Positions 2,946 through 48,011 of a stretch of DNA of 64,000 nt are shown piece after piece. A program made the position numbers and the translations under genes. A model generated the notes under the pieces. The model was not told the DNA's origin. It did not search any database and was given only the letters and a program-made list of their open reading frames with translations. How positions within the stretch are numbered: the stretch's first letter is position 1; each line of letters begins with the position of its first letter. Source of the DNA: Clostridia bacterium (GTDB taxonomy: Bacteria > Bacillota > Clostridia > Acetivibrionales > UBA4821); assembly GCA_041687355.1 (NCBI GenBank), contig JAWLCD010000011.1:2217-66216 (forward strand). Reading direction: 5' to 3'.

Positions 2946-3198
2946 TAACAAAACATAGGGAATAAGCCAAAAACAAAGATGGAGAGGAGTAAGCAGCACA
3001 GCCTCCAAGAGAGAAGCACCCACAGGCTGAAAGGTGCATCAGGTAAAACTGCTGAAGGTCGCTCTGGAGTTCTGCAGTTAAATATCAGTAGACTGCAGCG
3101 GGTAGTGCCGTTATACACTTTGAGTGTATATTCCACATCGGAATATAAATTAAGGTGGTACCACGGAACCTTCGTCCTTAGGAAACGGAGGTTTTTTT
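2946..3198 (+). promoter_or_regulatory. T-box leader (tRNA-sensing riboswitch), probably Val-specific
   Basis: The conserved T-box core AATTAAGGTGGTACCACGG sits at 3148-3166. It is followed by a terminator hairpin and T-run (3167-3198). An AGAGA element lies in the Stem I region near 3009. The best specifier candidate is GUC at 3058-3060 (GAAG-GUC-G), but this was not verified by folding. Confidence 0.85.
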
Positions 3199-3472: not shown

Positions 3473-6124
3473 ATGTCTGAACAAAGATTGATTTCAAAGA
3501 CCTATGAACCTGATAAAGTTGAAGAAAAAACCTATAGAGAATGGATGGGAAAAGGATATTTCAGGGCTGAGATAGACAAAGACAAGGAACCTTATACCAT
3601 CGTGATGCCACCTCCTAACGTAACCGGTCAGCTGCATATGGGTCATGCGCTTGACAATACCCTGCAGGATATTCTAATCAGGTGGAGAAGGATGCAGGGA
3701 TACTCTGCCTTGTGGCTTCCGGGAACCGACCATGCAGGTATTTCTACCGAAGCTAAGGTTGTTGAGAAACTGAGACAGGAAGGGTTAACCAAAGAGGCCC
3801 TTGGTAGGGAGAAATACCTTGAAAGAGCATGGGAGTGGAAGAAACAGTATGGCGGCAGGATAGTTGAACAGCTTAAGAAGCTGGGCTGTTCCTGTGATTG
3901 GTCGCGTGAAAGGTTTACACTGGATGAAGGGCTTTCGTCAGCGGTCACCGAGGTTTTTGTCAAGCTCTATAAAAAGGGCTTGATTTATAAGGGCGAGAGG
4001 ATAATAAACTGGTGTCCCAAGTGCAGAACTTCCATTTCGGATGCAGAGGTTGAATATGAAGAGAAAAGCGGCAGCCTGTGGTATATAAAATACCCGACAC
4101 CTGATGGAACTGACGGTATAGTTGTTGCCACCACAAGACCGGAGACAATGCTGGGTGATACGGCTGTAGCAGTTCATCCCGAGGATGAAAGATATAAGCA
4201 ACTTATAGGCAGAACAGTTGTCCTTCCGCTTATGAACAGGGAAATACCGGTGATTGCAGACCAATATGTGGATAAGGAATTCGGTACAGGGGCTGTTAAG
4301 ATTACCCCTGCCCATGATCCTAATGATTTTGAAGTTGGTCTCAGGCATAACCTTGAACAGATTAAGGTAATTGATGATGCTGGAATCATGAGTAAAAATG
4401 CGGGTAGATATGAAGGTATGGAAAGATACCAGGCAAGGAAGGCTATAGTCGAAGATTTGACAAAGCTGGGACTGCTTGAGAAAACCGAAGAGCATAAGCA
4501 TAATGTCGGAGGGTGTTACCGCTGTAATACTGTAATAGAACCTTCACTCTCAGAACAGTGGTTTGTTAAAATGAAGCCCCTGGCTGAGCCTGCAATCCGG
4601 GTTGTAAAGGAAGGGAAGATTAAATTTGTCCCAGACAGATTCTCAAAGATTTACTTCAATTGGATGGAGAATATCCAGGATTGGTGTATTTCGAGGCAGT
4701 TATGGTGGGGGCACAGGATTCCAGCCTATTATTGTTTGGACTGCGGGTATATAATGGTTGAAAAGGAGCCGCCTTCAAGCTGTGAAAAGTGCGGAAGTAA
4801 AAATATAAAGCAGGATGAAGATACGCTGGATACGTGGTTCAGCTCGGCACTCTGGCCCTTCTCCACCCTGGGGTGGCCGGAGAAGACCCAGGACCTTGAG
4901 TACTTCTATCCGACCAGTGTACTTGTTACAGCTTATGACATCATCTTCTTCTGGGTTGCAAGAATGATATTCTCCGGGATGGAGCATATGGCTGAGGAGC
5001 CGTTCAAGTATGTATTTATCCATGGCATTGTCAGGGATGCCCAGGGAAGAAAGATGTCCAAATCCTTAGGGAACGGAATTGACCCTATTGAGGTAATAGA
5101 CAAGTACGGTACAGATGCGTTAAGGTTTTCACTCACTATAGGCAATACACCCGGTAATGACATAAGGTTTTCAACCGAAAAGATAGAATCGGTGAGGAAC
5201 TTTGCCAACAAGATATGGAATGCTTCAAGGTTTGTTTTAATGAATCTGGAGCAGGGTAGGGATGACGCCAGCCATGCCCCCTTAAGGTTTACGCTTGCGG
5301 ATAAATGGATTCTCAGTAGGGTAAACCAGCTGGTACAGGAAGTAACAGATAATATGGAGAAATTTGAATTTGGTATTGCCGCTCAGAAATTGTATGAGTT
5401 CTTCTGGGATGAATTCTGCGATTGGTATATTGAAATGGTAAAACCAAGACTGTATGATATAAATAATCCCTCAAGACCCGAAGCGCAGTATGTTCTGACT
5501 AAAGTGCTGAGTACGGCATTAAAGCTTCTGCATCCATACATGCCGTTTATTACAGAAGAGATATACAGGAACCTGGTTGATGAAGACACAAGTATTATGG
5601 TTTCCGAATGGCCAGGGTTTGACCGCAGTCTTAGATATGAAGCCGACCAGGAAGATATGGCTCTAATTATGGAAACCATAAAATCAATAAGGAACATTAG
5701 AGCCGAGATGAACGTTCCTGCCAGCAGGAAATCCAAGGTGTTCTTAGTAACCGGGGATACCGGAATAAGGGAACTCCTTGACAGAGAGAAGACTTATTTT
5801 GAAAGACTGGCCTGGTCTGAAATTGAAATAAGACAGAATAGGCATGGGATTTCAAAGAATGTAGTTTCGGCAGTAATACCCGGAGTTGAGATATTTATTC
5901 CTTTTGAGGAACTGGTTGATGTGAGTAAGGAAATTGAAAGGCTGGGAAGGGAGAAGGCCGACCTCGAAAAGGAACTGCATAGGGTAAACGGACTGTTAAG
6001 TAATGAAAAATTCATGCAAAAGGCGCCTAAAAAGGTTGTGGACGAGGAGAAAGAAAAGAAAGTCCGTTATACCGAAATGATGGAAAAAGTTGTTGAGAGG
6101 CTGGAGAGCCTTAAGAATAATTGA
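3473..6124 (+). CDS. valS: Valyl-tRNA synthetase
   Basis: 883 aa. It has the class I HIGH motif (GQLHMGHA), the KMSKS motif, a CP1 editing domain and a C-terminal coiled coil. Confidence 0.97.
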
Positions 6125-6140
6125 TTGAATTGATAAAATA

Positions 6141-6172
6141 CAGAAAGGACCGGAATATTCCGGTCCTTTCTG
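6141..6172. terminator. Bidirectional hairpin terminator between valS and the convergent two-gene operon
   Basis: CAGAAAGGACCGGAATATTCCGGTCCTTTCTG is a perfect palindrome flanked by A/T-rich sequence. Confidence 0.8.
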
Positions 6173-6176
6173 TATT

Positions 6177-6671
6177 TTAAATTGTCAGTCTCCTTATAGG
6201 TAAAGTGAGGAAGTTAAGCTTATTAATAAGCAAGAATACTCTGGCATAAACCATCCTGACCCTGCTTCTACGGACAGCCATTAAACACAGATGGTCCTTT
6301 AGCCCGGCCAATGACAAGGTAATGTCATTCATAAGTATATCCCTGTAGTAATAACTCTTTTCTTTCTTTAAGGCTCGGGCACACATCTGAATCTTGTAAA
6401 TATATGGCTGCTGGTCTGGATGTGCATACCGCAGAACCTCTTCTGCAACAGCCAAGAGCTTGTCTGGGTCTGCATAGGGCATACCGCTTGAGGTATTACG
6501 GATACCACCGCAGTTAGCCAATCTGTTTACAACCTTTCCTGGGTCCGTACCTGGAACATGCTTAAACGTATATTTTATATCATCTTCGTGGATTGGTACT
6601 GAACGTCGTGCCAGGCGTGTATGTGCAGATGGCTCTCCTATACGTACTTTCGTTTTAAGTCTTTCTCTCAT
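6177..6671 (-). CDS. Hypothetical protein, no family recognised (second gene of a two-gene operon)
   Basis: 164-aa ORF from the ATG at 6671, with RBS AAAGGAGGTG upstream. No motif I can assign. Confidence 0.5.
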   Translation of the reverse strand: MRERLKTKVRIGEPSAHTRLARRSVPIHEDDIKYTFKHVPGTDPGKVVNRLANCGGIRNTSSGMPYADPDKLLAVAEEVLRYAHPDQQPYIYKIQMCARALKKEKSYYYRDILMNDITLSLAGLKDHLCLMAVRRSRVRMVYARVFLLINKLNFLTLPIRRLTI

Positions 6672-6695
6672 TCCCAAGCACCTCCTTTGAAGCCG

Positions 6696-7019
6696 TTACT
6701 TGACGTCCTTAATGTAGTGGTAGAATTCCATGAGTTCTGTTTCGCAATCACGTTTATGAACAAATGGCGCAAGGCTTTTAACAAGCTGCTGCCTGCTCTC
6801 ACTCACTATTATCCGCTGTCTGTACTCAGGTATCTGGGTTGAGAACAGGTTGCTGAGGTGGTTTCCCAAATGGAGCCTCAATCTTTGCAGCGATCGGCCT
6901 GATCTTTCAAGCTTGCGGATATGTTCCAGAATCTGTTTGCACCTTGTCTTCTCAAGAGACAGGGAAGCGCCTTGTGACGAAAGGAATGCAGATCTGTAAC
7001 CTGACTTTTTGTAACCCAT
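6696..7019 (-). CDS. Hypothetical protein, no family recognised (first gene of a two-gene operon)
   Basis: 107-aa ORF with RBS AAGGAGGAAATCTG-ATG. The product is basic and predicted helical. Confidence 0.5.
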   Translation of the reverse strand: MGYKKSGYRSAFLSSQGASLSLEKTRCKQILEHIRKLERSGRSLQRLRLHLGNHLSNLFSTQIPEYRQRIIVSESRQQLVKSLAPFVHKRDCETELMEFYHYIKDVK

Positions 7020-7132
7020 CAGATTTCCTCCTTAACGGCTGACATAAAGCCGCTGATTTGATATACAACTCCTTGGTCGAAATTATTCCGAACAGGTTAA
7101 GACATATAGAATTTTTGAGTAGATAATGTTTA

Positions 7133-7161
7133 ATTTTACTATTATTTTAAAGCAAGTTCAA
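7133..7161 (-). promoter_or_regulatory. Sigma-A type promoter for the 7019..6177 operon
   Basis: On the minus strand: TTGAAC (7161-7156), 17-nt spacer, TAAAAT (7138-7133). Confidence 0.55.
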
Positions 7162-7266
7162 GAGAAAAAAGCATATTATTAACTTTTTGCAGAACAATAT
7201 CTTTTTTCATGTGTGCCGGTTTGTTATAATGAATTCAGGATCATAACAGGATTCAGGAGAAATAGT

Positions 7267-8529
7267 ATGCAGAAAAAAACAATGCCGTTCTGGAAGGATT
7301 ACTGCAGGCCAAGATATAAGGATGAGATTGAGAATATTCAATCTGAGTTTCTTGCGCCGTATGCTGCTGTCACGACTGCCGGAAGAAGGTACAAAGAGGA
7401 GAGTTACAAGCTGGAGACCCGTTCCGAGTTCCAGCATGACAGGGACAGGATAATTCACTCCAAGGCATTCAGGAGACTATTATACAAGACTCAGGTATTT
7501 GTAAACCATGAAGGAGACCATTATCGTACAAGGCTGACGCACAGTATGGAGGCAGCCCAGATAGCAAGGAGCATATCAAGATGTCTCGGGCTGAATGAAG
7601 ATTTGACAGAAGCTATTTCGCTCGGGCACGACCTTGGACATACACCTTTTGGACATGCTGTGGAAGGACTGCTTGACAGATATCTTAAGGAAGAAGGTGG
7701 CTTTCTTCACAACCAGCATGGTGTAAGAGTGGTTGATATTCTGGAAAACAAGCCTGGCTATCCCCAGGGGGATTTCGGGCTGAACCTTACATGGGAAGTA
7801 AGGGAGGGGATACTAAAGCATACCGGTGATTCAAGCGGAATATATGCAGACCTTTGTCCGGATAAGCCGGGTTCGTTGGAATCCCAGGTTGTCTATTATG
7901 CGGATAAGATAGCATATATTTGCCACGACCTTGAAGACGCCATGAGTGCAGGCATAATTGATGAACTCAAGAAAAGCTGTATCATAGGCCAGGAATATCC
8001 TGAAAAGTTCTGGTATGATTTCGGAGTGGAGAAGTGTCACATAGATAAAGGTGTAAGTCCGCTTATCGGAGTTCTTACAAGGGTACTTACAGAGGAAACC
8101 ATAAAGGTAATTAGCAGGTACAATATAGACAGCACTGAGAAGGTAAGAAAGTTTTGCGACAATGGGGAAAACTTAAACAGGATTGTTACTTTCGGGCCTT
8201 TTGAATCCAGGTTCAAGGAATTAAAAGGGTTTGTATACAAATACATATACAGCAGTCCGGTTGTATCAGTCATGGATGTAAAAGCTGTGAGGGTTATCAG
8301 AAAAATATTTCATACCTATAAAAGAAATCCTGAGCAGCTGCCCTACCCGGTCTATGACTTATATATAAAAACTGTGGAAAAGCCGGAGAAACTCGGGAAT
8401 GGATACCTAACTACACCGCTGAGGGTAATATGCGATTATATTGCTTCAATGACTGACAGGTATGCAATTGAGGAATACGACAGACTGTTCAATCCACATT
8501 CTAAAGTCTATAAAGGTGTATCAATATGA
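7267..8529 (+). CDS. dgt: dGTP triphosphohydrolase-like HD-domain protein
   Basis: Shows the dGTPase-family pattern (FQHDRDRIIHSKAFRRL, YRTRLTHSMEAAQIAR, GHDLGHTPFGH, DKIAYICHDLEDA). I chose the start at MQKK because AGGAGA lies upstream of it. The track ORF begins at 7213. Confidence 0.85.
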   Translation: MQKKTMPFWKDYCRPRYKDEIENIQSEFLAPYAAVTTAGRRYKEESYKLETRSEFQHDRDRIIHSKAFRRLLYKTQVFVNHEGDHYRTRLTHSMEAAQIARSISRCLGLNEDLTEAISLGHDLGHTPFGHAVEGLLDRYLKEEGGFLHNQHGVRVVDILENKPGYPQGDFGLNLTWEVREGILKHTGDSSGIYADLCPDKPGSLESQVVYYADKIAYICHDLEDAMSAGIIDELKKSCIIGQEYPEKFWYDFGVEKCHIDKGVSPLIGVLTRVLTEETIKVISRYNIDSTEKVRKFCDNGENLNRIVTFGPFESRFKELKGFVYKYIYSSPVVSVMDVKAVRVIRKIFHTYKRNPEQLPYPVYDLYIKTVEKPEKLGNGYLTTPLRVICDYIASMTDRYAIEEYDRLFNPHSKVYKGVSI

Positions 8530-9113: not shown

Positions 9114-9315
9114 TGAATAATGCTATGAATTATTGGTTGTTTTAGAAAGATGTATACAAGTGGAAGAGGTTTGACACAATAACTCATATTTGATATACAT
9201 ATGTTATATAAGAATAAGGTAGTATCGGAATAAGATGTATACTTACAGTAGAAAAAAGTATTTTTTTGTGCTATAATTAATTTGAGCAATTCATTACAGG
9301 AAGGAGAGGTTGAGT

Positions 9316-9729
9316 ATGGCTGAACAAACCAAGGCCAAGGATGGTAACGTGGGCAGCATCAGGATAGCTAATGAGGTGGTTGCAATAATTGCCGGTCTGG
9401 CTGCAACTGAGGTTGCCGGAGTTGCAGGCATGAGCGGTGGTATTGCAGGCGATATAGTTGAGATTCTTCGGGGCAAGAACCTTTCCAAGGGAGTTAAAGT
9501 TGAAGTAGGAGAAAAGGAAACTGCCATAGATTTGTTTATCATAGTAGAGTATGGAGTTAGAATTCCTGATATCGCATGGGAGATTCAGAACAAGGTCAAG
9601 AAGGCTGTCGAGACCATGACAGGGCTTAATGTTGTTGAAGTAAATATCAATGTTCAGGCAGTGAATATTGAAAGGGAAACCAAGAAAGAACATAAGGAAA
9701 AAGAAGAGGAAGCTCACAGGGTTAAATAA
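9316..9729 (+). CDS. asp23: Asp23/Gls24-family alkaline shock protein
   Basis: Has the Asp23 signature N-terminus (IRIANEVVAIIAGLAATEVAGVAGM). RBS AGGAGAGG lies 7 nt upstream of the ATG at 9316. Confidence 0.9.
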   Translation: MAEQTKAKDGNVGSIRIANEVVAIIAGLAATEVAGVAGMSGGIAGDIVEILRGKNLSKGVKVEVGEKETAIDLFIIVEYGVRIPDIAWEIQNKVKKAVETMTGLNVVEVNINVQAVNIERETKKEHKEKEEEAHRVK

Positions 9730-9918
9730 GCCTTCATAGTGACTCATTATGTTAGGTAGAAGTGCACTAACCTTTATCATGTTTAGAAAAGCATCTTGTT
9801 TTATACCCTTTTTTAAAAGGGTTTATTTTTTTAGAAAAATAAAATATAATGTTTTTTGAAAGACAGATTGTATGCAGGATACTTAAATGAAATATATTTG
9901 AGAAACGGGGGAAACGGT

Positions 9919-10476
9919 GTGAATTTATTTGGAAGGTTGATGTTGTCGTTTTATGCATTTCTGATTGCTCTATTATCAATAACTGCTCTTGTTTTATCAT
10001 TCCTGGTTTGGGCGGGCACCATACCTTACTACACTGCCGCCGAAATGGCAGGGCTGCTCGTATCATACCAGTGGACGCTTCCAACAGTTTTGGTAACTGC
10101 TTTGCTGCTATTCGTTATTAGCCTTAGATTTATGCTCATGGGAGCAGGGAACAGGCAGGAAAGGAGCCCGGTTACAAGAGATGCTGCGGGTGGAGAAATT
10201 GCAATTTCGTTGGAAACATTTGAGAGCATTGCGCTGTCTGCCCTTAGGAAGATACCTGAGGCAAAGGATTACTCGGCAAAGGTAAGGAGAACGAATGACG
10301 GAGTGATAGTATCTATAAGCCTGTCTGTCATTCAGGATGTAAATATACCTGAGCTGGCCGAAGATATTCAGGTAAAAACTATTGAAGCTACTGAAAAAAT
10401 GACAGGAGTAAAAGTTCTGAATGTACGTGTGAAGATAGATAATATTGCTGCCGGTTTCAAGAATAAACTGGAATAG
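9919..10476 (+). CDS. amaP: Alkaline-shock-response membrane anchor protein (AmaP-like)
   Basis: An N-terminal TM pair is followed by an Asp23-like domain, and the gene sits immediately after asp23. I chose the GTG start at 9919 because GGGGGA lies upstream. Confidence 0.75.
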   Translation: MNLFGRLMLSFYAFLIALLSITALVLSFLVWAGTIPYYTAAEMAGLLVSYQWTLPTVLVTALLLFVISLRFMLMGAGNRQERSPVTRDAAGGEIAISLETFESIALSALRKIPEAKDYSAKVRRTNDGVIVSISLSVIQDVNIPELAEDIQVKTIEATEKMTGVKVLNVRVKIDNIAAGFKNKLE

Positions 10477-10495
10477 CTCCCTGGAGGTGAATTGG

Positions 10496-10723
10496 TTGAA
10501 CAAGGAGAAAATACTTGAATTTTATAACAAATACAAGGGAGAAGTCATAGGAGCAGGGGCTGGCCTAATCATTGCTTTATGTATCCTGTTTCTGGGTATA
10601 ATAAAAATACTGTTTATAGCTGCCTGTACATTTTTAGGCTATTATGTAGGAAAAAGAATTTATAAAGATAGAGACTATCTTAGGAATACGATGGATAGGG
10701 TTTTGAGATTTTTTAACATCTAA
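10496..10723 (+). CDS. DUF2273-type small integral membrane protein
   Basis: 75 aa from a TTG start preceded by GGAGGTG. It is the canonical third member of the asp23-amaP-DUF2273 module. Confidence 0.65.
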   Translation: MNKEKILEFYNKYKGEVIGAGAGLIIALCILFLGIIKILFIAACTFLGYYVGKRIYKDRDYLRNTMDRVLRFFNI

Positions 10724-10821
10724 TGTTAGCGGAATCCAGGTGCACAGATAAGTTAGAGAAGTGGGAGTTTGAAAATTCCGTACCCGGTTCCTATTTAACA
10801 GAATGTCTGGGAGGAAAGATA

Positions 10822-11250
10822 ATGAGCCGGAGGACAGCAAGAGAACTGGCGTTTAAACTGTTATTTCAATTGGAAATTCAGAAGGAAGACCGAGAAGTAC
10901 AAATTCAAAGTTTTCTGGAAGATAACGATATAGCTGAAAAAGACAGGGGTTATATACTTGATATAGTTGAAGGTACAGCTAAACGTATTGATGAGATTGA
11001 CAAAGATATTAGCAAATACCTTAAGGGCTGGAAAATAAAAAGAATTTCAAAAGTGGATTTATCAGTACTGAGACTGGCTATGTATGAAATTATGGAGAGA
11101 AATGATATACCTGAGAATGTCTCAATAAATGAAGCGATAGAAATAGCGAAGAAATACAGCGGCGAAGAATCCGGTGCATTTGTAAACGGTGTACTTGGAA
11201 GATTTGTAAAAGCAAGGTTAGTGTCTGATAAAGCAAATGAGACCGAGTAA
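10822..11250 (+). CDS. nusB: Transcription antitermination factor NusB
   Basis: Begins MSRRTARELAFKLLFQ and continues with a NusB fold sequence. The longer track ORF (10723) lacks an RBS. Confidence 0.93.
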   Translation: MSRRTARELAFKLLFQLEIQKEDREVQIQSFLEDNDIAEKDRGYILDIVEGTAKRIDEIDKDISKYLKGWKIKRISKVDLSVLRLAMYEIMERNDIPENVSINEAIEIAKKYSGEESGAFVNGVLGRFVKARLVSDKANETE

Positions 11251-11329: not shown

Positions 11330-12544
11330 ATGAATGCTTTGCAGGTATCTCAGGTAAACAAATACATTAAGGACCTCATATCCAGGGATTTCCTCCTGAA
11401 TGATTTTTGGGTTAGGGGGGAAATATCCAATTTTAAAAACCATTCATCAGGCCATATGTACTTTACAGTCAAAGATGAATCAAGTATTTTAAGATGCGTA
11501 ATGTTTCGGGCATACTGTTCAAACCTGCGGTTTATCCCTGCAAATGGAATGAAAGTGATAATACGTGGTGGAGTAAGCGTTTTTGAGAGGGATGGGCAGT
11601 ATCAGCTTTACTGTCACGAAATGCAGCCTGATGGTCTGGGAGCTCTCTATGCGGCATTTGAACAGCTTAAATTGAAGCTTAAAGACGAAGGCCTGTTTGA
11701 CCCAGGTATTAAGAAGAAGCTGCCAGCTTTCCCCGAAAGAATTGGGGTTGTTACTTCATGCACTGGTGCAGTAATCAAAGATATAATGAACGTATCACTA
11801 CGAAGATTTCCAAATGCCAGTATAGTTTTATTTCCGGTATCGGTCCAGGGAAGCTCGTCGGCCCGGGAGATTGCTCATGCACTCGATGTTCTCAATAAGA
11901 ACAGATCTGTTGATGTAATCATACTTGCAAGGGGCGGAGGCTCACTGGAGGAACTATGGGCTTTTAATGAGGAGCTGGTGGCAAGGGCTATATACAAGTC
12001 CCAGATTCCAGTGGTATCTGCAGTGGGGCATGAGACCGATTATACAATTTCAGATATGGCAGCGGATTTAAGAGCTCCGACACCATCTGCAGCGGCAGAA
12101 CTGGTAGTTCCTGACGCAAAGGAGCTAAAGTGGAAAGTTGATTCGTTAAGAAAAGAAATGGTTCTTGCAGTCCAGTCCAGAGTGTCGGACTGCAGGTCAC
12201 GGCTCCAGAAGATAGAGAACTCAATGCCCTTAAGACAGCCGTATGAAAAAGTCTATCAATTGAGAATGATACTGGATTTAAATCACAAGCTTATTCAGAG
12301 GAATATTGCTCTAAGGATAAGAGAGAGTCGGGATAGGCTTAGAAGTCTTATAGTACATTTGAATTCACTTAGCCCGCTGGCAGTTCTAGCAAGAGGTTAT
12401 TGCATTGCATCCGATTACAGTTCAGGAAAAGTAATAAAATCCGTAAAACAGGTATGCAGGGATGGACAGGTAAACATTAAATTTGCTGACGGCAGGGCTG
12501 AATGCAAGGTTGTAGATATAAAGGGAGGACAACATGAATTTTGA
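11330..12544 (+). CDS. xseA: Exodeoxyribonuclease VII large subunit
   Basis: 404 aa with an OB-fold N-terminus (WVRGEISNFKNHSSGHMYFTVKD) and the XseA catalytic body. Confidence 0.95.
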   Translation: MNALQVSQVNKYIKDLISRDFLLNDFWVRGEISNFKNHSSGHMYFTVKDESSILRCVMFRAYCSNLRFIPANGMKVIIRGGVSVFERDGQYQLYCHEMQPDGLGALYAAFEQLKLKLKDEGLFDPGIKKKLPAFPERIGVVTSCTGAVIKDIMNVSLRRFPNASIVLFPVSVQGSSSAREIAHALDVLNKNRSVDVIILARGGGSLEELWAFNEELVARAIYKSQIPVVSAVGHETDYTISDMAADLRAPTPSAAAELVVPDAKELKWKVDSLRKEMVLAVQSRVSDCRSRLQKIENSMPLRQPYEKVYQLRMILDLNHKLIQRNIALRIRESRDRLRSLIVHLNSLSPLAVLARGYCIASDYSSGKVIKSVKQVCRDGQVNIKFADGRAECKVVDIKGGQHEF

Positions 12545-12767
12545 GGAAGCTGTAAAGAAACTGGAGAAGATAGTTCAAGAGCTTGAAACTGGAGAACTGA
12601 CTCTGGATGAGTCTCTGAAGAAGTTCAAGGAAGGCATAGAACTTACATCATTATGTAATAAGAAGCTGGATGAGGCAGAGAAAAAGATATCTGTTCTTGT
12701 AGAAGGCAGTGATGGAAAGATTAGTGAGAAGCCATTTGATTTACACGGGGAGGAAGGGCTTGAATAA
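12534..12767 (+). CDS. xseB: Exodeoxyribonuclease VII small subunit
   Basis: 77 aa. Begins MNFEEAVKKLEKIVQELE...LTLDESLKKFKEG, and its start overlaps the xseA end. Confidence 0.9.
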   Translation: MNFEEAVKKLEKIVQELETGELTLDESLKKFKEGIELTSLCNKKLDEAEKKISVLVEGSDGKISEKPFDLHGEEGLE

Positions 12768-13650
12768 CATAATTTCTCAGATTGAAGACTACGTGAAGCT
12801 TATTGATGCCAGACTGAGCAGCTGTGTTGGGGAGTTGGATGTGCCGGAGAAGAAGATTTATCAGGCCATGCGATATAGCCTGCTGGCAGGAGGAAAGAGG
12901 ATAAGACCGGTACTTACCCTGTCTGTAAACGACATGTTTGGCGGTGATATTGAAGCTGCCCTACCCTTTGCATGTGCAGTAGAATTAATACATACATATT
13001 CATTGATACATGATGACCTTCCTGCATTAGACAACGATGATTACAGAAGAGGCAGAAAGACAAACCATAAGGTATTTGGCGAAAGTATGGCCATACTAGC
13101 CGGTGATGCACTGCTTAACAAGGCTTTTGAAATAATGATTGATTCACTCAAGCCTGATGTGAAATTGGCTGACAAAATAAAAGCTATGCGGGAAGTAGCT
13201 TCTGCCAGCGGTGCTAACGGTATGATTGGCGGCCAGGTGGTGGATATTGAAAGTGAAGGCTGTGAGGTTGTCGGGGACATTCTTAAATATATGCATTTGA
13301 AAAAGACCGGCTGCCTTATTAAGGCATCGGCTAAAGTGGGGGCGATAATAGCCGGTATGGGAGAGCAGGACATAAATCGGATAGACAATTATGCCCAGAA
13401 TCTAGGGCTGGCTTTTCAGATTAAGGATGATATTTTGTCTGAAGTAGGCAATGAAGCCAGGATGGGTAAGAGTGTGGGTAACGATAGGAAGAACCGTAAG
13501 TCAACCTATGTGACTATACTTGGCCTGGATGAAGCTTACAGACTACTTAACCTTACTACCAGAGATGCTGTAGAATCATTGAGCAGTTACGGAGAGAAAG
13601 CAGATTTTCTTATCGGTTTGGCAGAGTATCTGCTAAAGAGAGAATACTAG
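12760..13650 (+). CDS. ispA: Short-chain (E)-polyprenyl (farnesyl/geranylgeranyl) diphosphate synthase
   Basis: Both Asp-rich motifs are present (LIHDDLPALDNDDYRRG and FQIKDDILS). I favour the TTG start at 12760 because of the GGGGAGGA RBS. The track start is 12709. Confidence 0.9.
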   Translation: MNNIISQIEDYVKLIDARLSSCVGELDVPEKKIYQAMRYSLLAGGKRIRPVLTLSVNDMFGGDIEAALPFACAVELIHTYSLIHDDLPALDNDDYRRGRKTNHKVFGESMAILAGDALLNKAFEIMIDSLKPDVKLADKIKAMREVASASGANGMIGGQVVDIESEGCEVVGDILKYMHLKKTGCLIKASAKVGAIIAGMGEQDINRIDNYAQNLGLAFQIKDDILSEVGNEARMGKSVGNDRKNRKSTYVTILGLDEAYRLLNLTTRDAVESLSSYGEKADFLIGLAEYLLKREY

Positions 13651-13660: not shown

Positions 13661-14110
13661 GTGAATCCGGTTTTGGATATTTTTAGTAACCAGGTAATTC
13701 TGGTTCCTGCATTTGCATGGCTGGTTACCCAGGTTACAAAGGTTATTTATGATCTGGAGAAGTATAAGAAGATTGATATAAGAAGGTTCGTAGGTTCAGG
13801 CGGTATGCCAAGTTCGCATGCAGCGTTTGTGACATCGCTGGCTACAGTTGTGGGGTTGAAGGCGGGCTGGGGCTCACCGGAATTTGGTGTTGCCTTTGCT
13901 CTTGCAATGGTAGTGATGTATGATGCTACGGGTGTCAGAAGGGCAGCGGGCAAGCAGGCACAGGTTCTGAACAGGTTGATTGAGGAGTCCCAAACCAGTG
14001 GAAAGCTTACCAACCTTGACGTTAAGCTCAAAGAACTTATAGGCCATACACCGGTTGAAGTAATTGTTGGTGGGATGATAGGAATACTTTTTGGTATTCT
14101 GTTTTCATAA
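13661..14110 (+). CDS. Divergent PAP2-family (YuiD-like) membrane protein
   Basis: 149 aa starting at GTG. It has the motif run GGMPSSHAAFVTSLA ... MYDATGVRR ... GHTPVEV typical of the DUF212/divergent acid-phosphatase family. Confidence 0.8.
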   Translation: MNPVLDIFSNQVILVPAFAWLVTQVTKVIYDLEKYKKIDIRRFVGSGGMPSSHAAFVTSLATVVGLKAGWGSPEFGVAFALAMVVMYDATGVRRAAGKQAQVLNRLIEESQTSGKLTNLDVKLKELIGHTPVEVIVGGMIGILFGILFS

Positions 14111-14260
14111 GAATAAGAATGCAAATAAAATCAACTTGACGTATATTCAAGCTTAACCGGCATATATATAGAACACCGCTCAAAACGGCTTAATATGAAC
14201 CTGATATGATATTTGTATATATTTTATATCTTATTGTATAATTAAATATTAATAATTAAT

Positions 14261-14877
14261 GGTGGTACAGTATTCTAGTCAGAACTGCCGATTCTGAAGG
14301 CGGGCCTAAAAATCCGCTAAGGGCACATCGATGAAGTTCCTTGTGCCAGCTTGCGACGCCCAGTCGTGGGTTGGTGCTGGGAGTTAAGGATTAGGGGCGA
14401 TCTGCAATGGCATGCGGGCGTTGACCCCTTTTCCGTGGAGACCTGCTTGTGTGGTTTGTAAACCTGGGGTCAGGCTGTGAAGCTTCCGCCACAGGATTTA
14501 TTAAACTACGCTGCAGGATTAAACCTGTTATGCGGTACTATTTGTGCTGTGTACAGTGTAGCCTGCCTTGAGTGAAATTGGTGGATAGCGGGTCTGGCAG
14601 ATGTTTATTGGCCGATAATTATCTGCTAATTGCTGCTTGAAACCTCTTTTGCAAAAGAGGCTAGGGGTTGGCCAGGGCTGTTGAGGAAATCTCCTAGACT
14701 GCTCGTAAAGAAGCATTTCGGGGATTACAGTGTGGACTAAGTGGTAATCCAGTCCCTTCTCCGGCGACGGGAAGGTTTCAGGTTTAATGGGAAACCGCTG
14801 AAACGGCGACGTTTGAGTACCTGATGGGGAAAGCCTACTGGACCTAAGCCGCAAAATTTACTCGAAGTGCTACCACC
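14261..14877 (+). ncRNA. ole: OLE-like (ornate, large, extremophilic) structured non-coding RNA
   Basis: No credible ORF is present. The region is GC-richer than the AT-rich spacer around it. It is closed by GGTGGTA (14261-14267) pairing with TACCACC (14871-14877) and contains many internal hairpins, e.g. CCTCTTTTGCAAAAGAGG at 14643-14660 and GGATTAC...GTAATCC at 14722-14750. The synteny nusB-xseAB-ispA ... small membrane protein-dxs is the hallmark OLE context. Strand is inferred from the operon direction, and the ends are approximate. Confidence 0.75.
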
Positions 14878-14977
14878 ATTTAATTAATAAATTGCAGCAG
14901 CTGGCTGAGTACAGCAGCAGTACATATAGAAGTAAATCTGGTTTAAAACAGATAAACAGGGGACTGGTGAAAAGTTT

Positions 14978-15616
14978 TTGAGTGAAAACCATAGTAACGG
15001 TGATGTAAAGAAAAAGGCAAGAGGTAACCCACACAAGAATAAAAGCCGGAGATGGATTATTATCCTGGTTATTACCACTATTTTTCTCTCTGTGTCTATC
15101 AGCAGTGCTTCATCTATAATAATCCAAAAGATTAACCTGTTTGTTGCAATATGCGTATTACTGGTTATAATTCTTATAGGAATACTTTTTGACATTGTAG
15201 GAATAGCTGTGGCTGCTGCGGATGAAACTCCATTTCATGCCATGGCTTCAAGTAAGGTAAAAGGCTCGAAAAACGCTATTAAACTAGTAAGGAATGCAAG
15301 TAAGGTTACAACGTTCTGTAATGACGTCGTTGGTGATGTTTGCAGTGTAATAAGCGGTTCTACCAGTGCATTCATTGTTCTTAGGCTTGCGCAGATTTTA
15401 AAAGGAATCGATATTTCAGTTCTAGGTATAGCTATAAGTGCATTGGTTGCAGCCCTTACCGTTTTGGGGAAAGGTCTGGGTAAAACTGTTGCGATATCAA
15501 AGAGCAATCAGATAGTATACAGTGTAGCGCTTATGCAATATATTGCCTTTAACAGGTTTAATATAAAAGATTTATTTAAAAAGGATTCGGAAGGGAAAGA
15601 GGATAGACATGAGTAA
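14978..15616 (+). CDS. oapA: OLE-associated membrane protein (OapA-like)
   Basis: 212-aa polytopic membrane ORF with a TTG start, lying immediately downstream of the structured RNA. Its end overlaps the dxs start. The assignment rests on context and topology only. Confidence 0.65.
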   Translation: MSENHSNGDVKKKARGNPHKNKSRRWIIILVITTIFLSVSISSASSIIIQKINLFVAICVLLVIILIGILFDIVGIAVAAADETPFHAMASSKVKGSKNAIKLVRNASKVTTFCNDVVGDVCSVISGSTSAFIVLRLAQILKGIDISVLGIAISALVAALTVLGKGLGKTVAISKSNQIVYSVALMQYIAFNRFNIKDLFKKDSEGKEDRHE

Positions 15617-17501
15617 AATTCTTCCATTAGTTAATAATCCATCTGATATCAAGGGACTTACTGATGAGCAACTCGACCAGCTTGGGAGAGAGCTGAGGGA
15701 GTTTCTGATTTCGTCGGTATCAAAAACCGGCGGACACCTGGCATCAAATCTTGGTGTTGTTGAATTGACTATTGCCCTACACCTCGTATTTAATACACCT
15801 TATGACAAGGTTGTATGGGATGTTGGCCACCAGTCGTACGTACATAAAATTCTTACCGGAAGAAAGGATAGCTTTGATACCTTAAGACAACTGAATGGTA
15901 TCAGCGGGTTTCCAAAAGTTAATGAAAGTGCTCATGACTGTTTTGATACAGGACACAGCAGCACTTCTGTTTCAGCTGCACTTGGAATGGCAAGGGCAAG
16001 AGATCTTAGAAACGAAAAAAACTCGGTAGTAGCTATTATCGGGGACGGAGCACTAACCGGAGGTATGGCCTTTGAAGCTTTAAATGATGCAGGGCGGTCT
16101 CCGAACAATCTGATTGTGGTACTCAATGATAATGAGATGTCTATTGATAAAAATGTTGGCGGCCTGTCCAGCTGTCTGAACAGGATACGAACCCAGCCAA
16201 TATATTTCAAAGTCAAGAGGGACCTTGATCTCCTTCTAAAGAAGATACCTGCAATCGGACCCAAGGTTACAAAGACCATAGATAAGGCAAAGGGAACCAT
16301 CAAATACATGATGCTGCCGGGAATGTTTTTTGAAGAACTGGGTTTTAAATATATAGGTCCTGTTGACGGGCATGATGTAGGTGAACTCCGGAAAGTACTT
16401 ACAAAGGCTAAAGCACTTGGAGGGCCCGTGCTGATTCATATTCTGACCCAGAAGGGGAAGGGTTACTCATATGCTGAGAAAAATCCTCACATATTTCACG
16501 GGATATCGCCCTTTGATATTGAAACCGGGGAAATAAAAAAGAGCGTTAGCGTAAAGGATTACTCGACTGTCTTTGGAGAAGAGCTAACCGATATTGCAAG
16601 GCGTGATGAAAGTGTGGTTGCAATAACAGCCGCCATGCCTCATGGAACTGGTCTTCAGAACTTTGCTTTGGAGTTTCCGGAGAGATTTTTTGACGTAGGT
16701 ATAGCTGAACAGCATGCGGTCACAATTGCAGCCGGTCTCGCATCAGAAGGTTTTAAGCCTGTAGTTGCCATATATTCTTCATTTCTGCAGAGAGCTTATG
16801 ACCAAATAGTTCACGATGTCTGCACGCAGAACCTGCCTGTAGTTTTTGCAATTGACAGAGCGGGAATAGTAGGAAATGACGGGGAAACACATCAGGGGTT
16901 GTTTGACTTGTCCTATCTTTCTCATATACCTAATATGTCGGTAATGGCTCCGAAGGACTTCGATGAGTTCCGCCATATGCTTAGATTTTGCACTGAATTC
17001 AAGGGACCCATTGCAATACGATACCCGAGAGGGTCAGCCAAAGATATACCTGTTGAGAGAATACAACCTATTGAGTATGGCAGAGCCGAACTGCTTCAGC
17101 AAGGGGAAGATATAACCATTGCCGCCTGTGGCAAGATGGTTCGTGTTGCTCTTAAGGTGGCAAGGGAGATAATGAAGTTTGGCATGAGTGCTGATGTAAT
17201 CAATGTAAGATTTATCAAGCCCCTGGACACAAAAATGATACTAGCATCGGCTGAAAAGACCAAGAAGGTTGTAACCATGGAGGATAATGCTATAAGCGGT
17301 GGTTTTGGAAGTGCAGTCCTCCAGGCTATAGCTCAGGGTGGTATTGAGGGAGTAAAGACCAAGATGTTCGGATATCCCGATGAATTTGTAAGACATGGAA
17401 ACACAGATCAGATTCACAGGCTTTACGGTCTGGACTACCAGTCAATTGCGTGTGAGATATTGAATACCTACAAGGTGGGGAAAAAGTTTAAGGTGTTATA
17501 G
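15609..17501 (+). CDS. dxs: 1-deoxy-D-xylulose-5-phosphate synthase
   Basis: 630 aa with GGHLASNLGVVELT, a TPP-binding GDGALTGGMAFEALN motif and transketolase-like C-terminal domains. Confidence 0.97.
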   Translation: MSKILPLVNNPSDIKGLTDEQLDQLGRELREFLISSVSKTGGHLASNLGVVELTIALHLVFNTPYDKVVWDVGHQSYVHKILTGRKDSFDTLRQLNGISGFPKVNESAHDCFDTGHSSTSVSAALGMARARDLRNEKNSVVAIIGDGALTGGMAFEALNDAGRSPNNLIVVLNDNEMSIDKNVGGLSSCLNRIRTQPIYFKVKRDLDLLLKKIPAIGPKVTKTIDKAKGTIKYMMLPGMFFEELGFKYIGPVDGHDVGELRKVLTKAKALGGPVLIHILTQKGKGYSYAEKNPHIFHGISPFDIETGEIKKSVSVKDYSTVFGEELTDIARRDESVVAITAAMPHGTGLQNFALEFPERFFDVGIAEQHAVTIAAGLASEGFKPVVAIYSSFLQRAYDQIVHDVCTQNLPVVFAIDRAGIVGNDGETHQGLFDLSYLSHIPNMSVMAPKDFDEFRHMLRFCTEFKGPIAIRYPRGSAKDIPVERIQPIEYGRAELLQQGEDITIAACGKMVRVALKVAREIMKFGMSADVINVRFIKPLDTKMILASAEKTKKVVTMEDNAISGGFGSAVLQAIAQGGIEGVKTKMFGYPDEFVRHGNTDQIHRLYGLDYQSIACEILNTYKVGKKFKVL

Positions 17502-17511
17502 ACTGTAGAGG

Positions 17512-17537
17512 GAAGCTGGAAACAGCTTCTTTTTTTT
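17512..17537 (+). terminator. Rho-independent terminator of dxs
   Basis: GAAGCTG-GAAA-CAGCTTC followed by T8. Confidence 0.85.
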
Positions 17538-17556
17538 GCTTATTTCAGAGCATTTG

Positions 17557-17587
17557 AACGTGACAGGGGACGGTTCTCTGTCACGTT
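17557..17587. repeat. Hairpin carrying the 19-mer GACAGGGGACGGTTCTCTG, also found at 47936-47954
   Basis: AACGTGACA-[GGGGACGGTTCTC]-TGTCACGTT. The 19-mer is shared exactly with the 47.9-kb palindrome. Confidence 0.6.
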
Positions 17588-17790
17588 TTGGATATTCTTA
17601 TCAAGAGAGGTGTGAAAAGTAAGGTTCTGAAAAGTTACTCTAGAATGCTTTAGATTATTTGTAACAAGTTTGTTAATAAATTGTATTGTAAATGAAAGAA
17701 CAAAAATATAAAGATTCTTGTCAAAAAATACGATAAATCTAGTGAAATACCACCACTTTATGAAAACAAAGGAATTTTTATTAGAATATA

Positions 17791-17819
17791 TTGACATAGA
17801 ACACGTGTTCGTATATAAT
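17791..17819 (+). promoter_or_regulatory. Consensus sigma-A promoter of the YneA-like gene
   Basis: TTGACA (17791-17796), 17-nt spacer, TATAAT (17814-17819). Confidence 0.75.
17798..17811. promoter_or_regulatory. LexA (SOS/Cheo) box 1, inside the promoter spacer
   Basis: AGAACACGTGTTCG matches the Firmicute GAAC-N4-GTTC palindrome. Confidence 0.7.
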
Positions 17820-17826
17820 AAAAATG

Positions 17827-17840
17827 CGAACAGTTGTTCT
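17827..17840. promoter_or_regulatory. LexA (SOS/Cheo) box 2, just downstream of the -10 element
   Basis: CGAACAGTTGTTCT matches CGAAC-N4-GTTC. Confidence 0.65.
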
Positions 17841-17856
17841 AATGGAGGGAGTTAAT

Positions 17857-18147
17857 ATGGTTTCAAAGAGAATTAAGATTAAAGACCCAACAAGATTAAA
17901 ATTATTTTGCTTTGTTATATTCTTTATAACGGTTTTACTTCTTCAAAGTAAGTGGCTCTATAGTTCTGATTACCAACGTACCAAATGGGTTGTTGTGTCA
18001 GCAGGGGAAAGTTTATGGGATATAGCTGCAAGATATAAATCTGATAGGGAGGATATAAGAAATTACATGTATAAGATAAAAGAAATCAATATGCTTAAGT
18101 CGAGTATGGTGTTGGAAGGGCAGGAACTGGAATTACCTGTACAGTAA
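17857..18147 (+). CDS. Small membrane-anchored LysM protein, YneA-like SOS cell-division inhibitor candidate
   Basis: 96 aa from the ATG preceded by GGAGGGA. It has an N-terminal TM segment (LKLFCFVIFFITVLLL) and a C-terminal LysM domain (VVVSAGESLWDIAARY...LELP). Two LexA boxes lie in its promoter. Confidence 0.7.
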   Translation: MVSKRIKIKDPTRLKLFCFVIFFITVLLLQSKWLYSSDYQRTKWVVVSAGESLWDIAARYKSDREDIRNYMYKIKEINMLKSSMVLEGQELELPVQ

Positions 18148-18411
18148 ATGGTTGGTTGAGATTAGGATTTGAATAAGTTATATAGAAAAATCGATGAAAA
18201 GCTGTGTATATAATACATGGCTTTTTGTGTTGCAGCATATCCCGGATTAAGCACATCTACTGCTTCGCTAAAGGAGCTTCTCCTTGAATATAGGGAAATG
18301 AATTAACCAACGAATCAATCTTCCTGCCTTAGGGAATATTTAACATAGAAAGGCCGATAAAACATTATGTGTATACAGTAACAAGGGAAAGGCTGAAAAT
18401 AAGCATTGATT

Positions 18412-19476
18412 ATGAAAGGTATAGGATTGGAAAACCGTATAAGTCTAATTTATAGATTTTTATCCAGGGTGTTTCCAAAGGTTGATATGGAACTTGCCAG
18501 GTGGGTAAGAGAAATCCGCTGTTTTGGTTCTGATGAGCTGGCCTACCAGGCAATGGCAAGCATAAGGCTGAAGAAGTTTCACTGCCAGGGAGGAAGTATT
18601 TTTTCTCTGTATCCGGGCTGCAATACTGACAGGATGATTGAACTGATTGTTGCACTGCAAACCATCAGCGACTACCTTGATAACCTTTGTGATAGGTGTG
18701 GCTTTCAGGAGGAAAGAGCTTTCAGACAGCTACACCTTGCATTTATTGAGGCACTTGAGCCTGAAGGAGCATTATCTGACTATTATCTATACTATCCCTT
18801 TCGAGATGACGGAGGATACCTATCCAAACTTGTTGGTACATGCAGAGAGTGTGTTAATGAATTGCCTTTATACAGGAATGTCCGGGAACGAATAATGAAG
18901 TTGGGAGAGCTATATTCCGAGCTTCAGATATACAAGCATCTCTCCCCGAATATCAGAGAACATAAAGTAATCAGCTGGACCCTCCCAAACCTTAAAGAAT
19001 ATAGAGATATTACAAGCTGGGAATTTGCTGCAGCCTCTGGTTCAACTCTCGCAATATTTATGATGTTTGCTCTGTCAAGCAGTTCAAGTCGGCTTGATAA
19101 GGATATAGACGCTGCTTTTGAAGCTTATTTTCCGTGGATTTGCGGACTGCATATTCTGCTTGATTATTTTATCGATCTCAAAGAGGATAGGGAATGGGGG
19201 GATTTAAATTTTGTATCTTTCTATTCGGATATGTCTGAGGCTGAGGATAGGTTAAAACTCTTCATAGAAAAATCCATAGATAGGGCTGGGAAACTACCAA
19301 ATAATTATTTCCACAGAGTGGTAGTGCAGGGCCTCTTAGCACTGTACCTCTCTGACCCAAAGATTGAACTGGGAAGCCAGGGGGCTATTGGGAGGAGACT
19401 GGTAAACAAGGGCGGAGGCACAGCGTATACCTTGTGGAGAATATGTAGAAGATTAAGAAGCAAAGGTTTTATTTAA
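18412..19476 (+). CDS. Tetraprenyl-beta-curcumene synthase family protein (YtpB/DUF2600-like)
   Basis: ~354 aa with DUF2600-type sequence (AYQAMASIRLKKFHCQGGSIFSLYP, LQTISDYLDNLCDR, LLDYFIDLKED). The start is uncertain between TTG 18406 and ATG 18412. Confidence 0.7.
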   Translation: MKGIGLENRISLIYRFLSRVFPKVDMELARWVREIRCFGSDELAYQAMASIRLKKFHCQGGSIFSLYPGCNTDRMIELIVALQTISDYLDNLCDRCGFQEERAFRQLHLAFIEALEPEGALSDYYLYYPFRDDGGYLSKLVGTCRECVNELPLYRNVRERIMKLGELYSELQIYKHLSPNIREHKVISWTLPNLKEYRDITSWEFAAASGSTLAIFMMFALSSSSSRLDKDIDAAFEAYFPWICGLHILLDYFIDLKEDREWGDLNFVSFYSDMSEAEDRLKLFIEKSIDRAGKLPNNYFHRVVVQGLLALYLSDPKIELGSQGAIGRRLVNKGGGTAYTLWRICRRLRSKGFI

Positions 19477-19483: not shown

Positions 19484-20488
19484 CTATCCGCATCGTGCAA
19501 TAACCAAATCGGGAAGTGAAGATAAGAACTGGCGATAATGACTTTCTGGTATGCCTTGAAGGTAGGCTTTAGCTTCCTGGCAGTATTGCTGGGCTATAGT
19601 ATAAGCCTTGTCCAAGGCTCCGGTTTCATGCAAACCGGTTACTATGATGGACTGCAGCTTTTCAGTCGGAAGTGAATTATCCTTCAGGCCATTTATATGA
19701 GGCAGAAATCTGTTGTCTGTTTCAAGTAGTATAAGAATCGGGAGTGTAATATTTCCCTGCATAAGGTCGCTGAACACTGGTTTCCCCAATTTCTCGGGTG
19801 TTCCTCTTAAATCAAGGATATCATCTATTATTTGGAATGCATAGCCTAGTTTTAGCCCGTACAGTTCCATAATATCCGTATAGGTATCACCGGCGTCTGA
19901 TATTGAAGCCCCGGCTTTGCAGCATGCGGAGATTAGCCTGGCAGTTTTTTTCTCTATCCGTTTCATGTAATCCTGCAAATCATAAGAAGGTTCTTTTATA
20001 TCCAGATTCTGAAGAATCTCACCTTCACACATATTTTCAATAGCGTGAACCAAAAATTTCATCTCTCTGTGAAGACGATTGCTGCAGAGTATTTCAAATG
20101 CTTTAGCAAACAGATAATCACCTGCAAGGACTGATATATGGTTACCATATGTATAATTAAGTGTTGTACTGCTGTGTCTTAAAGCGGAATTATCGATAAT
20201 ATCATCATGGACAAGCGATGCAAGATGTATTAGCTCAGCAGCCGCAGCGGTTTTTACCAGCAGATGGGATAACGGTCCAAAGCACATTCCTGAATACAGA
20301 ACCAATAGAGGCCGAATGCGTTTACCGCCTGAGTTAATAATATGCGTACATATTTCTTCTACTTGCCCGCTAAGGCTTGCTGTAGAGTTGACAAGCTCCT
20401 GTTCAACCATTTCAATTTCTCGAAGTTCCCTAACCCTGATAAACGTTGAATAAGCCTGAGAGTGTTTATTCTTTGAAGGTATGTCCAT
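19484..20488 (-). CDS. Long-chain polyprenyl diphosphate synthase (HepT/heptaprenyl-type)
   Basis: 334 aa with GGKRIRP, first DDxxD (LVHDDIIDNS) and second DDxxD (FQIIDDILD). The product chain length cannot be read from the sequence. Confidence 0.85.
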   Translation of the reverse strand: MDIPSKNKHSQAYSTFIRVRELREIEMVEQELVNSTASLSGQVEEICTHIINSGGKRIRPLLVLYSGMCFGPLSHLLVKTAAAAELIHLASLVHDDIIDNSALRHSSTTLNYTYGNHISVLAGDYLFAKAFEILCSNRLHREMKFLVHAIENMCEGEILQNLDIKEPSYDLQDYMKRIEKKTARLISACCKAGASISDAGDTYTDIMELYGLKLGYAFQIIDDILDLRGTPEKLGKPVFSDLMQGNITLPILILLETDNRFLPHINGLKDNSLPTEKLQSIIVTGLHETGALDKAYTIAQQYCQEAKAYLQGIPESHYRQFLSSLPDLVIARCG

Positions 20489-22181: not shown

Positions 22182-22739
22182 TTGCCTTTAAATAAGACTC
22201 TGGTGGTGGACCGATTGAGTATTCCTAATTTCATTACTATTGCAAGATTCTTTCTTATTCCTTTGTTTGTTGTGCTTATGCTGGACAGGCAATATACTAT
22301 TGCCCTGGTGGTCTTCCTGTTTGCCGGGTTTACCGATGCTGTAGACGGTTACATAGCAAGAAAATATAAGATGATTACAAAGCTGGGGCAGATACTTGAC
22401 CCACTTGCAGATAAGCTTGTATTGCTTACTGCTCTTGTTATGATAGCTGTTCAGAACCTGGTGCCTAATATTTATCCAATTATAGTAATTGTAGCTGCCA
22501 AGGAGATATTAATATGCATAGGAAGCGCAGTGCTCTTCAGAAAGGGAGTTGTAGTTAAGGCCAATTGGTACGGTAAGGTATCAACCGTAATTTTTTATGC
22601 TGCAATAACTCTTTCGATATTAATACCGGCCTATGGTAGGTTTCTAATGCTGGTTGCAGTTTCTGCCGCTATATTTGCGTTCATTATGTATTGCCTTAAT
22701 TATCTCAGAATCCGAAAGTCAATTTCATATACAAGGTAA
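22182..22739 (+). CDS. pgsA: CDP-diacylglycerol-glycerol-3-phosphate 3-phosphatidyltransferase
   Basis: 185 aa with the CDP-alcohol phosphatidyltransferase motif DAVDGYIARKYKMITKLGQILDPLADK. TTG start. Confidence 0.85.
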   Translation: MPLNKTLVVDRLSIPNFITIARFFLIPLFVVLMLDRQYTIALVVFLFAGFTDAVDGYIARKYKMITKLGQILDPLADKLVLLTALVMIAVQNLVPNIYPIIVIVAAKEILICIGSAVLFRKGVVVKANWYGKVSTVIFYAAITLSILIPAYGRFLMLVAVSAAIFAFIMYCLNYLRIRKSISYTR

Positions 22740-22851: not shown

Positions 22852-22928
22852 CGGGATGTGGCTCAGCTTGGTAGAGCGCGGCGTTCGGGACGCTGAGGTC
22901 GCAGGTTCAAATCCTGTCATCCCGACCA
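22852..22928 (+). tRNA. tRNA-Pro (anticodon CGG), CCA encoded
   Basis: A manual cloverleaf fits: acceptor CGGGATG/CATCCCG, D-arm GCTC-AGCTTGGTA-GAGC, anticodon loop TTCGGGA, T-arm GCAGG-TTCAAAT-CCTGT, then ACCA. Confidence 0.9.
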
Positions 22929-34368: not shown

Positions 34369-34386
34369 TCTTACCTCCTGTTTTCG

Positions 34387-34495: not shown

Positions 34496-34597
34496 TATAG
34501 ACACAACAAATTATGCTCTCTAGCCTGAAAGCATAATTCTGTTTAATTTACTGTTTCATATAACACTACAGGTATATTTCAAAATGATTACATTTTT

Positions 34598-36995: not shown

Positions 36996-37024
36996 TTATT
37001 ATATAAAGAGGAGAGATGATAGGA

Positions 37025-47991: not shown

Positions 47992-48011
47992 TTTAAGAAA
48001 TGGAGGGGAGT

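Follow-up and report, generated by a model that had tools for sequence, protein, structure and literature searches.

The window analyzed here, 64,000 nucleotides (nt) of contig JAWLCD010000011.1, contains between ispA and dxs a gene for the large structured RNA OLE and, directly downstream, a gene for OapA, a membrane protein of 212 amino acids (aa). An OLE/OapA locus had been proposed at this place in an initial annotation of the same DNA, and the proposal is borne out by a full-length match to the OLE model of Rfam (RF01071) and by a downstream open reading frame (ORF) with the hallmarks of OapA. We consider it almost certain that an uncultured Bacillota (Clostridia-like) member has its ole-oapA locus here, with a full-length OLE and an intact oapA. 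The locus comprises the following features.

14213-14242, plus strand: putative dedicated OLE promoter (TTGTAT at 14213-14218, 18-nt spacer, extended -10 element TGTATAAT at 14235-14242)
14246-14892, plus strand: OLE RNA gene, from the RF01071 match, with a P1-closed structured core at 14261-14877
14324-14340, plus strand: CACAUCGAUGAAGUUCC, invariant stretch within the P4a/J4a-5 region that agrees at every position with the consensus of the RF01071 alignment
14438-14520, plus strand: long variable hairpin, with 37 nt against 5 in the Rfam consensus (32 nt longer)
14755-14775, plus strand: P13 hairpin (CCUUC, bulged U14760, CCG, GCGA loop 14764-14767, CGG, GAAGG), from the RF01071 alignment
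14797-14818, plus strand: P14.1 hairpin with a GCGA tetraloop at 14806-14809, from the same alignment
14978-15616, plus strand: oapA, 212 aa, TTG start; its N-terminus aligns with those of homologues
15323-15337, plus strand: codons of D116-V-V-G-D120 (the DxxxD motif), from the translation and an alignment of homologues

Identity of the RNA and of the membrane protein

We scanned the whole window with Rfam 15, in which the gathering score of RF01071 is 50 bits. A search of this region with the OLE covariance model had been suggested as a check, and it gave a full-length plus-strand match at 14246-14892 (558.6 bits, E 4.4e-161, model positions 1-616 of 616). The OLE of Acetivibrio thermocellus (locus L086 in our numbering) scores 559 bits with the same model, equal to that of the window. 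The structured core is approximately 617 nt long (14261-14877) and is closed by helix P1, in which, by direct reading of the sequence, GGTGGTA (14261-14267) pairs with TACCACC (14871-14877). By a crude parse, all seven P1 pairs are kept in 23 of the 29 related OLE loci that were parsed, and compensatory changes occur among related loci (for example, GGTGGAG/TTCCACC, AGTGGCG/CGCCACT and GATGGCG/TGCCATC). The terminal helix that had been pointed out earlier is therefore present and covaries across related loci. Few non-canonical pairs occur in the RF01071 alignment of the window OLE. The GC content is 0.43–0.57 over positions ~14275-14875, compared with 0.25–0.35 in 14050-14350 and 0.34–0.39 downstream, in agreement with the earlier description of a GC-richer core.

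The elements to which proteins of the OLE particle bind in Halalkalibacterium halodurans are also retained. One OapA site and the OapC kink turn (k-turn) have been mapped to the P4a/J4a-5 region (PMC9723947, PMC12265935); the window OLE keeps the k-turn segment, a predicted OapC-binding element as in H. halodurans. Binding of OapB needs the GNRA tetraloop of P13 and a one-nucleotide bulge, and P14.1 is a weak secondary OapB site in H. halodurans (PMC7936274). The predicted P13 of the window, with its GCGA loop and bulged U14760, matches this OapB-binding architecture. The window OLE is of the ‘full-length’ type of Fernando & Breaker 2024 (PMC11332333), and belongs neither to the reduced ‘variant 1’ nor to ‘variant 2’. 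We also considered the hairpin at 14438-14520 (folding energy –37 kcal/mol, z = –5.0) as a distinguishing variant. This was rejected, and the hairpin was regarded as a variable stem, because extensions of similar length are also carried by A. thermocellus, Acetivibrio cellulolyticus (L002) and a 71%-identical metagenomic relative (L001).

The spacer between the upstream DUF212 gene and OLE is AT-rich and approximately 135–150 nt long, and within it the extended -10 element TGTATAAT sits approximately 19 nt ahead of P1. A TATAAT/TATAGT -10 box is common to the window and its two closest relatives (L001 and L003). A consensus promoter scan did not list the site at 14213-14242 because its -35 hexamer is weak. 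In B. halodurans, an active proximal promoter lies in the same position, OLE is partly co-transcribed with its neighbours, and the product is a single, abundant and exceptionally stable processed RNA (PMC3413148). A scan of the region between the 3΄ end of OLE (14877) and oapA (14978) found no terminator-like site, and co-transcription of the two genes is therefore likely.

We next consider the protein. A total of 1485 oapA homologues were found, of which the closest named ones (Acetivibrio and Petroclostridium) are approximately 45–50% identical. Searches of Pfam and NCBIfam with the 212-aa protein gave no domain above threshold, which is normal for the family. In an alignment of 14 OapA homologues, N115, D116, V117, G119 and D120 are invariant (14/14), forming the block C-N-D-V-x-G-D, and a second invariant block reads E-x-P-F-H-x-M-A. 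The DxxxD motif is distinctive of OapA and absent from CNNM domains (PMC11332333). Because of this distinctiveness and its invariance in the alignment, D-V-V-G-D is the canonical OapA motif; the initial annotation saw it in a predicted transmembrane (TM) region and advised a second look, but the motif is ordinary. Hydropathy gave hydrophobic segments at residues ~23-49, 52-84, 117-135 and 139-168, and an AlphaFold model contains long helices at 19-51, 54-82, 97-140 and 145-193. The N-terminus is basic, with eight K/R within residues 1-25, and K93, K98, R105 and K109 are conserved in the predicted TM2-TM3 loop of the aligned proteins.

The strongest support for the identification of this protein is genomic. 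We scanned one genome per GTDB species, obtained 598 confirmed relatives, all from Clostridia, and kept 80 loci for counts. OLE lies directly upstream of the oapA homologue in all 80 loci, dxs lies downstream of oapA in 75, and ispA lies upstream of OLE in 41. The assignment of the 212-aa ORF as OapA is thus supported by its position, its predicted helices, the DxxxD motif and the family-wide linkage to OLE.

Gene neighbourhood and other features of the window

The genes surrounding ole-oapA, together with the terminator-like site that closes the unit, are as follows.

9310-9729, plus strand: Asp23 gene, from Pfam/NCBIfam
9856-10476, plus strand: amaP-like gene, from Pfam/NCBIfam
10445-10723, plus strand: DUF2273 gene, from Pfam/NCBIfam
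10723-11250, plus strand: nusB (Pfam NusB E 6e-40; TIGR01951 152 bits)
11330-12544, plus strand: xseA, exonuclease VII subunit (TIGR00237 485 bits)
12534-12767, plus strand: xseB, exonuclease VII subunit (TIGR01280 78 bits)
12709-13650, plus strand: ispA, farnesyl-diphosphate synthase type (NF045485 FPPsyn 353 bits, cut-off 275)
13661-14110, plus strand: DUF212, YuiD-like divergent PAP2 membrane protein gene (PF02681 165.6 bits)
15609-17501, plus strand: dxs (TIGR00204 847 bits), its ATG overlapping the oapA stop by 8 nt
17507-17534, plus strand: strong terminator-like hairpin (12-pair stem and T run), closing the OLE-oapA-dxs unit
22182-22739: CDP-alcohol transferase gene, within 8 kb downstream

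The expected nusB, xseA, xseB and ispA upstream and dxs downstream were all identified by Pfam/NCBIfam. The conserved upstream block opens with nusB. The NusB domain begins at residue 35 of the nusB ORF, and the true start may therefore lie downstream of the annotated ATG. The intact oapA is translationally coupled to dxs. The gene order is the same as that in the cultured OLE-bearing species A. cellulolyticus and A. thermocellus. The Asp23/AmaP-like/DUF2273 genes form an alkaline-shock membrane trio (9310-10723, plus strand) directly upstream of nusB, and this trio is conserved in most OLE loci that retain the nusB-ispA block.

DUF212 starts 10 nt after ispA. The initial annotation placed a YuiD-like divergent-PAP2 gene between ispA and the RNA, and both gene and position are correct, but its description as inserted does not hold. 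The order ispA-DUF212-OLE-oapA-dxs is also found in L001, in two metagenome-assembled genomes (L003 and L004), and in A. cellulolyticus and A. thermocellus. Conservation of this gene in related OLE loci had been named as a point to check; DUF212 lies between ispA and OLE in 17 of the 41 ispA-linked loci, including those of Alkaliphilus transvaalensis, Marinisporobacter balticus, Anaerosolibacter carboniphilus and Acetivibrio mesophilus, and is lacking there in the other 24. An insertion special to the window genome was accordingly rejected. Selenihalanaerobacter shriftii (L087) carries xseA-xseB-ispA-DUF212-dxs-rrmJ-nadK-argR-recN with no OLE or oapA, and L088 carries ispA-DUF212 without OLE. 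These neighbourhood counts and the OLE-less ispA-DUF212-dxs cluster indicate that DUF212 goes with the isoprenoid genes rather than with the RNA; ole-oapA is embedded in the ancient ispA-dxs cluster, to which DUF212 often belongs whether or not OLE is present. In the S. shriftii locus (4086-7398), the gap between DUF212 and dxs is 77 nt, and the cluster is thus seen there as an ‘empty site’ that already contains DUF212 but no ole-oapA.

An isoprenoid and membrane-lipid context had been described for the locus. This is appropriate for ispA and dxs, which flank ole-oapA, as is known for OLE, but the ispE-like GHMP kinase gene (48000-48872) and the second CDP-alcohol transferase gene (63107-63736, minus strand) lie 33–48 kb from OLE among unrelated housekeeping genes. 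A DUF2600 gene (18406-19476, plus strand) and a second polyprenyl synthase gene (19484-20488, minus strand) are convergent; DUF2600 is the family of the tetraprenyl-beta-curcumene synthase YtpB of Bacillus subtilis. This pair lies 1–3 kb downstream of dxs, recurs in L001, and is possibly a sesquarterpene-type lipid cluster.

Several further features were observed in the window. Behind dxs, at 17791-18147 (plus strand), a perfect TTGACA-17-TATAAT promoter (17791-19) is followed by a YneA-like LysM gene (cell-division suppressor), which scores 50 bits with NF010723 (cut-off 60), and a similar LysM gene occurs after dxs in L001 and L003; divergent from it is an 85-aa ORF (17540-17797, minus strand) with no family match. 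A tRNA-Pro(CGG) gene (22852-22928, plus strand) follows the CDP-alcohol transferase gene at 22182-22739, and a tRNA gene occupies a comparable position in L003. T-box leaders precede valS (2967-3182 and 3473-6124, respectively, plus strand) and ileS (36744-36978, plus strand, and 37016-39814). A c-di-AMP riboswitch (34373-34504, minus strand, 89.7 bits) lies directly upstream of a gene for a secreted NlpC/P60 hydrolase with four SH3 repeats (32911-34368). A protein with PilZ and response-regulator receiver domains is encoded at 44036-45070 (plus strand), between an mnmA-like tRNA thiolase gene and cysS.

Alternative explanations and proposed mechanism

The gap between the end of DUF212 (14110) and the TTG codon of oapA (14978) is 867 nt, and it had been described as an approximately 870-nt region with no credible ORF. 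This description is upheld: all ORFs of at least 50 aa in the gap are antisense, namely 14528-14854 (108 aa) and two starting near 14870-14884, and the longest is broken in relatives. A minus-strand gene in the 108-codon open frame would be in line with the frequency of long antisense stop-free stretches in OLE loci; the longest stop-free stretch in OLE genes has a median of 106 codons (79 loci) and is antisense in 67 of 79. However, neither of the two closest relatives has the frame intact (L001 carries an in-frame break and L003 a frameshift), its similarity is accounted for by nucleotide conservation of the RNA, and the covariance-model match includes compensatory pairs. The 108-aa ORF was therefore rejected as a gene, and the probability that the gap encodes a protein on the minus strand is practically nil; the frame has probably arisen because the conserved RNA sequence is poor in stops. 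Alternatively, the region could be a cis-acting leader, that is, a large regulatory 5΄ untranslated region of an oapA-dxs mRNA with no free-standing RNA. The likely co-transcription of OLE with oapA, in view of the missing terminator-like site, and the 8-nt overlap between oapA and dxs would be compatible with such a leader, but OLE of B. halodurans is a discrete, abundant, stable and processed RNA (PMC3413148) that binds proteins in trans, and the RNA of the window belongs, at full length, to the same family. A leader is therefore very unlikely.

As for the protein, several homologues go by the name ‘Mg2+ and Co2+ transporter CorB’ in databases or have precomputed PF01595 (CNNM) matches, which would be expected if the 212-aa protein were an ordinary CNNM/CorB-type Mg2+/Co2+ transporter that merely adjoins OLE. 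The CNNM profile matches 11 of the 14 aligned family members (best E 5e-7), and the window protein has a sub-threshold match (E 0.0024, 18 bits, below the Pfam cut-off of 28.4). The top four Foldseek matches in the PDB are likewise CorB/CorC transmembrane domains, although they are weak (E 0.017–0.55, TM-score 0.31–0.38), and a search of PDB sequences with the OapA profile gave noise only. These similarities are outweighed by the small size of the protein (212 aa), by its lack of the domains that characterise MpfA/CorB, namely the CBS pair and CorC, by the presence of DxxxD, and by the linkage to OLE in 80 of 80 loci, which together make an ordinary transporter highly improbable. We further considered whether DUF212 could be an accessory membrane subunit that the OLE particle has in some lineages. 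This multi-pass membrane protein is encoded directly upstream of ole in the 17 ispA-linked loci mentioned above, which belong to several orders, and OLE may require additional membrane proteins for its retention in the bilayer (PMC12265935). Nevertheless, the clusters of L087 and L088 contain DUF212 without OLE, 24 of the 41 ispA-linked OLE loci lack it, and it is 10 nt from ispA but ~135–150 nt from OLE, with a promoter-like site in between; we assign only a small chance to this role.

The identification of the locus as ole-oapA is consequently preferred, while a few points weigh against it or against parts of it. The AlphaFold model of OapA, built from the 14-sequence alignment, has low confidence (predicted local distance difference test, pLDDT, 62.6), and its resemblance to the CorB fold is for this reason weak and merely suggestive. 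We looked for oapB (SBB/KOW-type), oapC (ybxF) and an MpfA-type gene and found none within the 64-kb window; from a published anticorrelation, an MpfA-family gene would be expected to be missing from this genome. The promoter of the window OLE is a candidate derived from the sequence alone. Finally, the cation-transport mechanism proposed below builds on a published idea and is itself tentative.

In H. halodurans, OLE RNA dimerises (PMC12286853, PMC12265935), and cells that lose the OLE particle become sensitive to cold, short-chain alcohols, Mg2+ and poor carbon sources (PMC3413148, PMC9723947, PMC10898510). By analogy, the OLE of the window would be transcribed from its own promoter just upstream, possibly together with read-through from nusB-xseAB-ispA-DUF212, and would be a stable RNA that folds and dimerises. 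Dimers of OapA would hold it at or in the cytoplasmic membrane, whereas OapB bound to P13 and OapC bound to the k-turn, both presumably encoded elsewhere in the genome, would complete the particle. Such a particle might help the cell to tolerate cold, short-chain alcohols, excess Mg2+ and poor carbon sources. Speculatively, and with somewhat less than an even chance of being right, OapA could be a stripped-down divalent-cation transport module of CNNM/MpfA type, in which the RNA supplies the sensing and regulatory role of the CBS and CorC domains of MpfA/CorB. The recurrent order ispA-DUF212-[ole-oapA]-dxs could also reflect a coupling of the OLE particle to polyprenyl-phosphate metabolism, in which DUF212 either acts on an isoprenoid pyrophosphate lipid that accommodates or shields the membrane-inserted RNA, or serves as an accessory membrane subunit in Clostridia. 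The occurrence of DUF212 between ispA and dxs where OLE is missing weakens this idea, and we consider it very unlikely; a search of the literature on DUF212 found nothing relevant.

OLE is among the largest conserved bacterial non-coding RNAs, and any copy of it is of general interest. The present locus is already known in kind, being a standard RNA-protein system in a standard context. The copy in the window adds no new information, because the standard Rfam model detects it with the score of a well-studied species, its gene order is that of Acetivibrio, and the OapA motifs are standard. The suggestion that its context is an informative variant was therefore not sustained, since the gene order is ordinary and found in Acetivibrio and others. 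A useful by-product of the analysis is the neighbourhood count over 80 species genomes.

Comparison with known systems

We compared the window protein with OapA of H. halodurans (WP_010898928.1) and C. botulinum (CLB_RS09010) by described features. They are alike in the position after ole, four predicted TM helices, a basic N-terminus and DxxxD. A remote resemblance to CNNM domains, published for OapA, may be shared as well; CorB structures (7M1U/7M1T) are among the top-ranking, though weak, fold matches of the window protein. To the MpfA/CorB/CorC Mg2+ transporters of the CNNM family, the likeness is confined to a weak profile and fold match of the TM region. The window OapA differs from them in lacking the CBS pair and the CorC/HlyC domain, in having DxxxD, and in having four helices, compared with three in CorB (PMC11332333).

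The gene order also resembles that of the Bacillota cluster Asp23/AmaP-nusB-(folD)-xseA-xseB-ispA-dxs-rrmJ-argR-recN, with which the window shares amaP-DUF2273-nusB-xseA-xseB-ispA...dxs. As in other OLE species, ole-oapA lies between ispA and dxs. The window departs from the cluster in having DUF212 after ispA, an arrangement also known from Acetivibrio, Alkaliphilus, Anaerosolibacter and Selenihalanaerobacter. Behind dxs it has the YneA-like LysM gene and the DUF2600/polyprenyl-synthase pair, whereas other species have rrmJ. The RNA itself is similar to OLE of A. thermocellus and H. halodurans in the end-to-end match to the model, P1, the invariant joining segments, the GNRA loops of P13 and P14.1, the bulged U and the presence of oapA downstream. 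The sole difference is the longer hairpin at 14438-14520, which the window OLE has in common with its close relatives.

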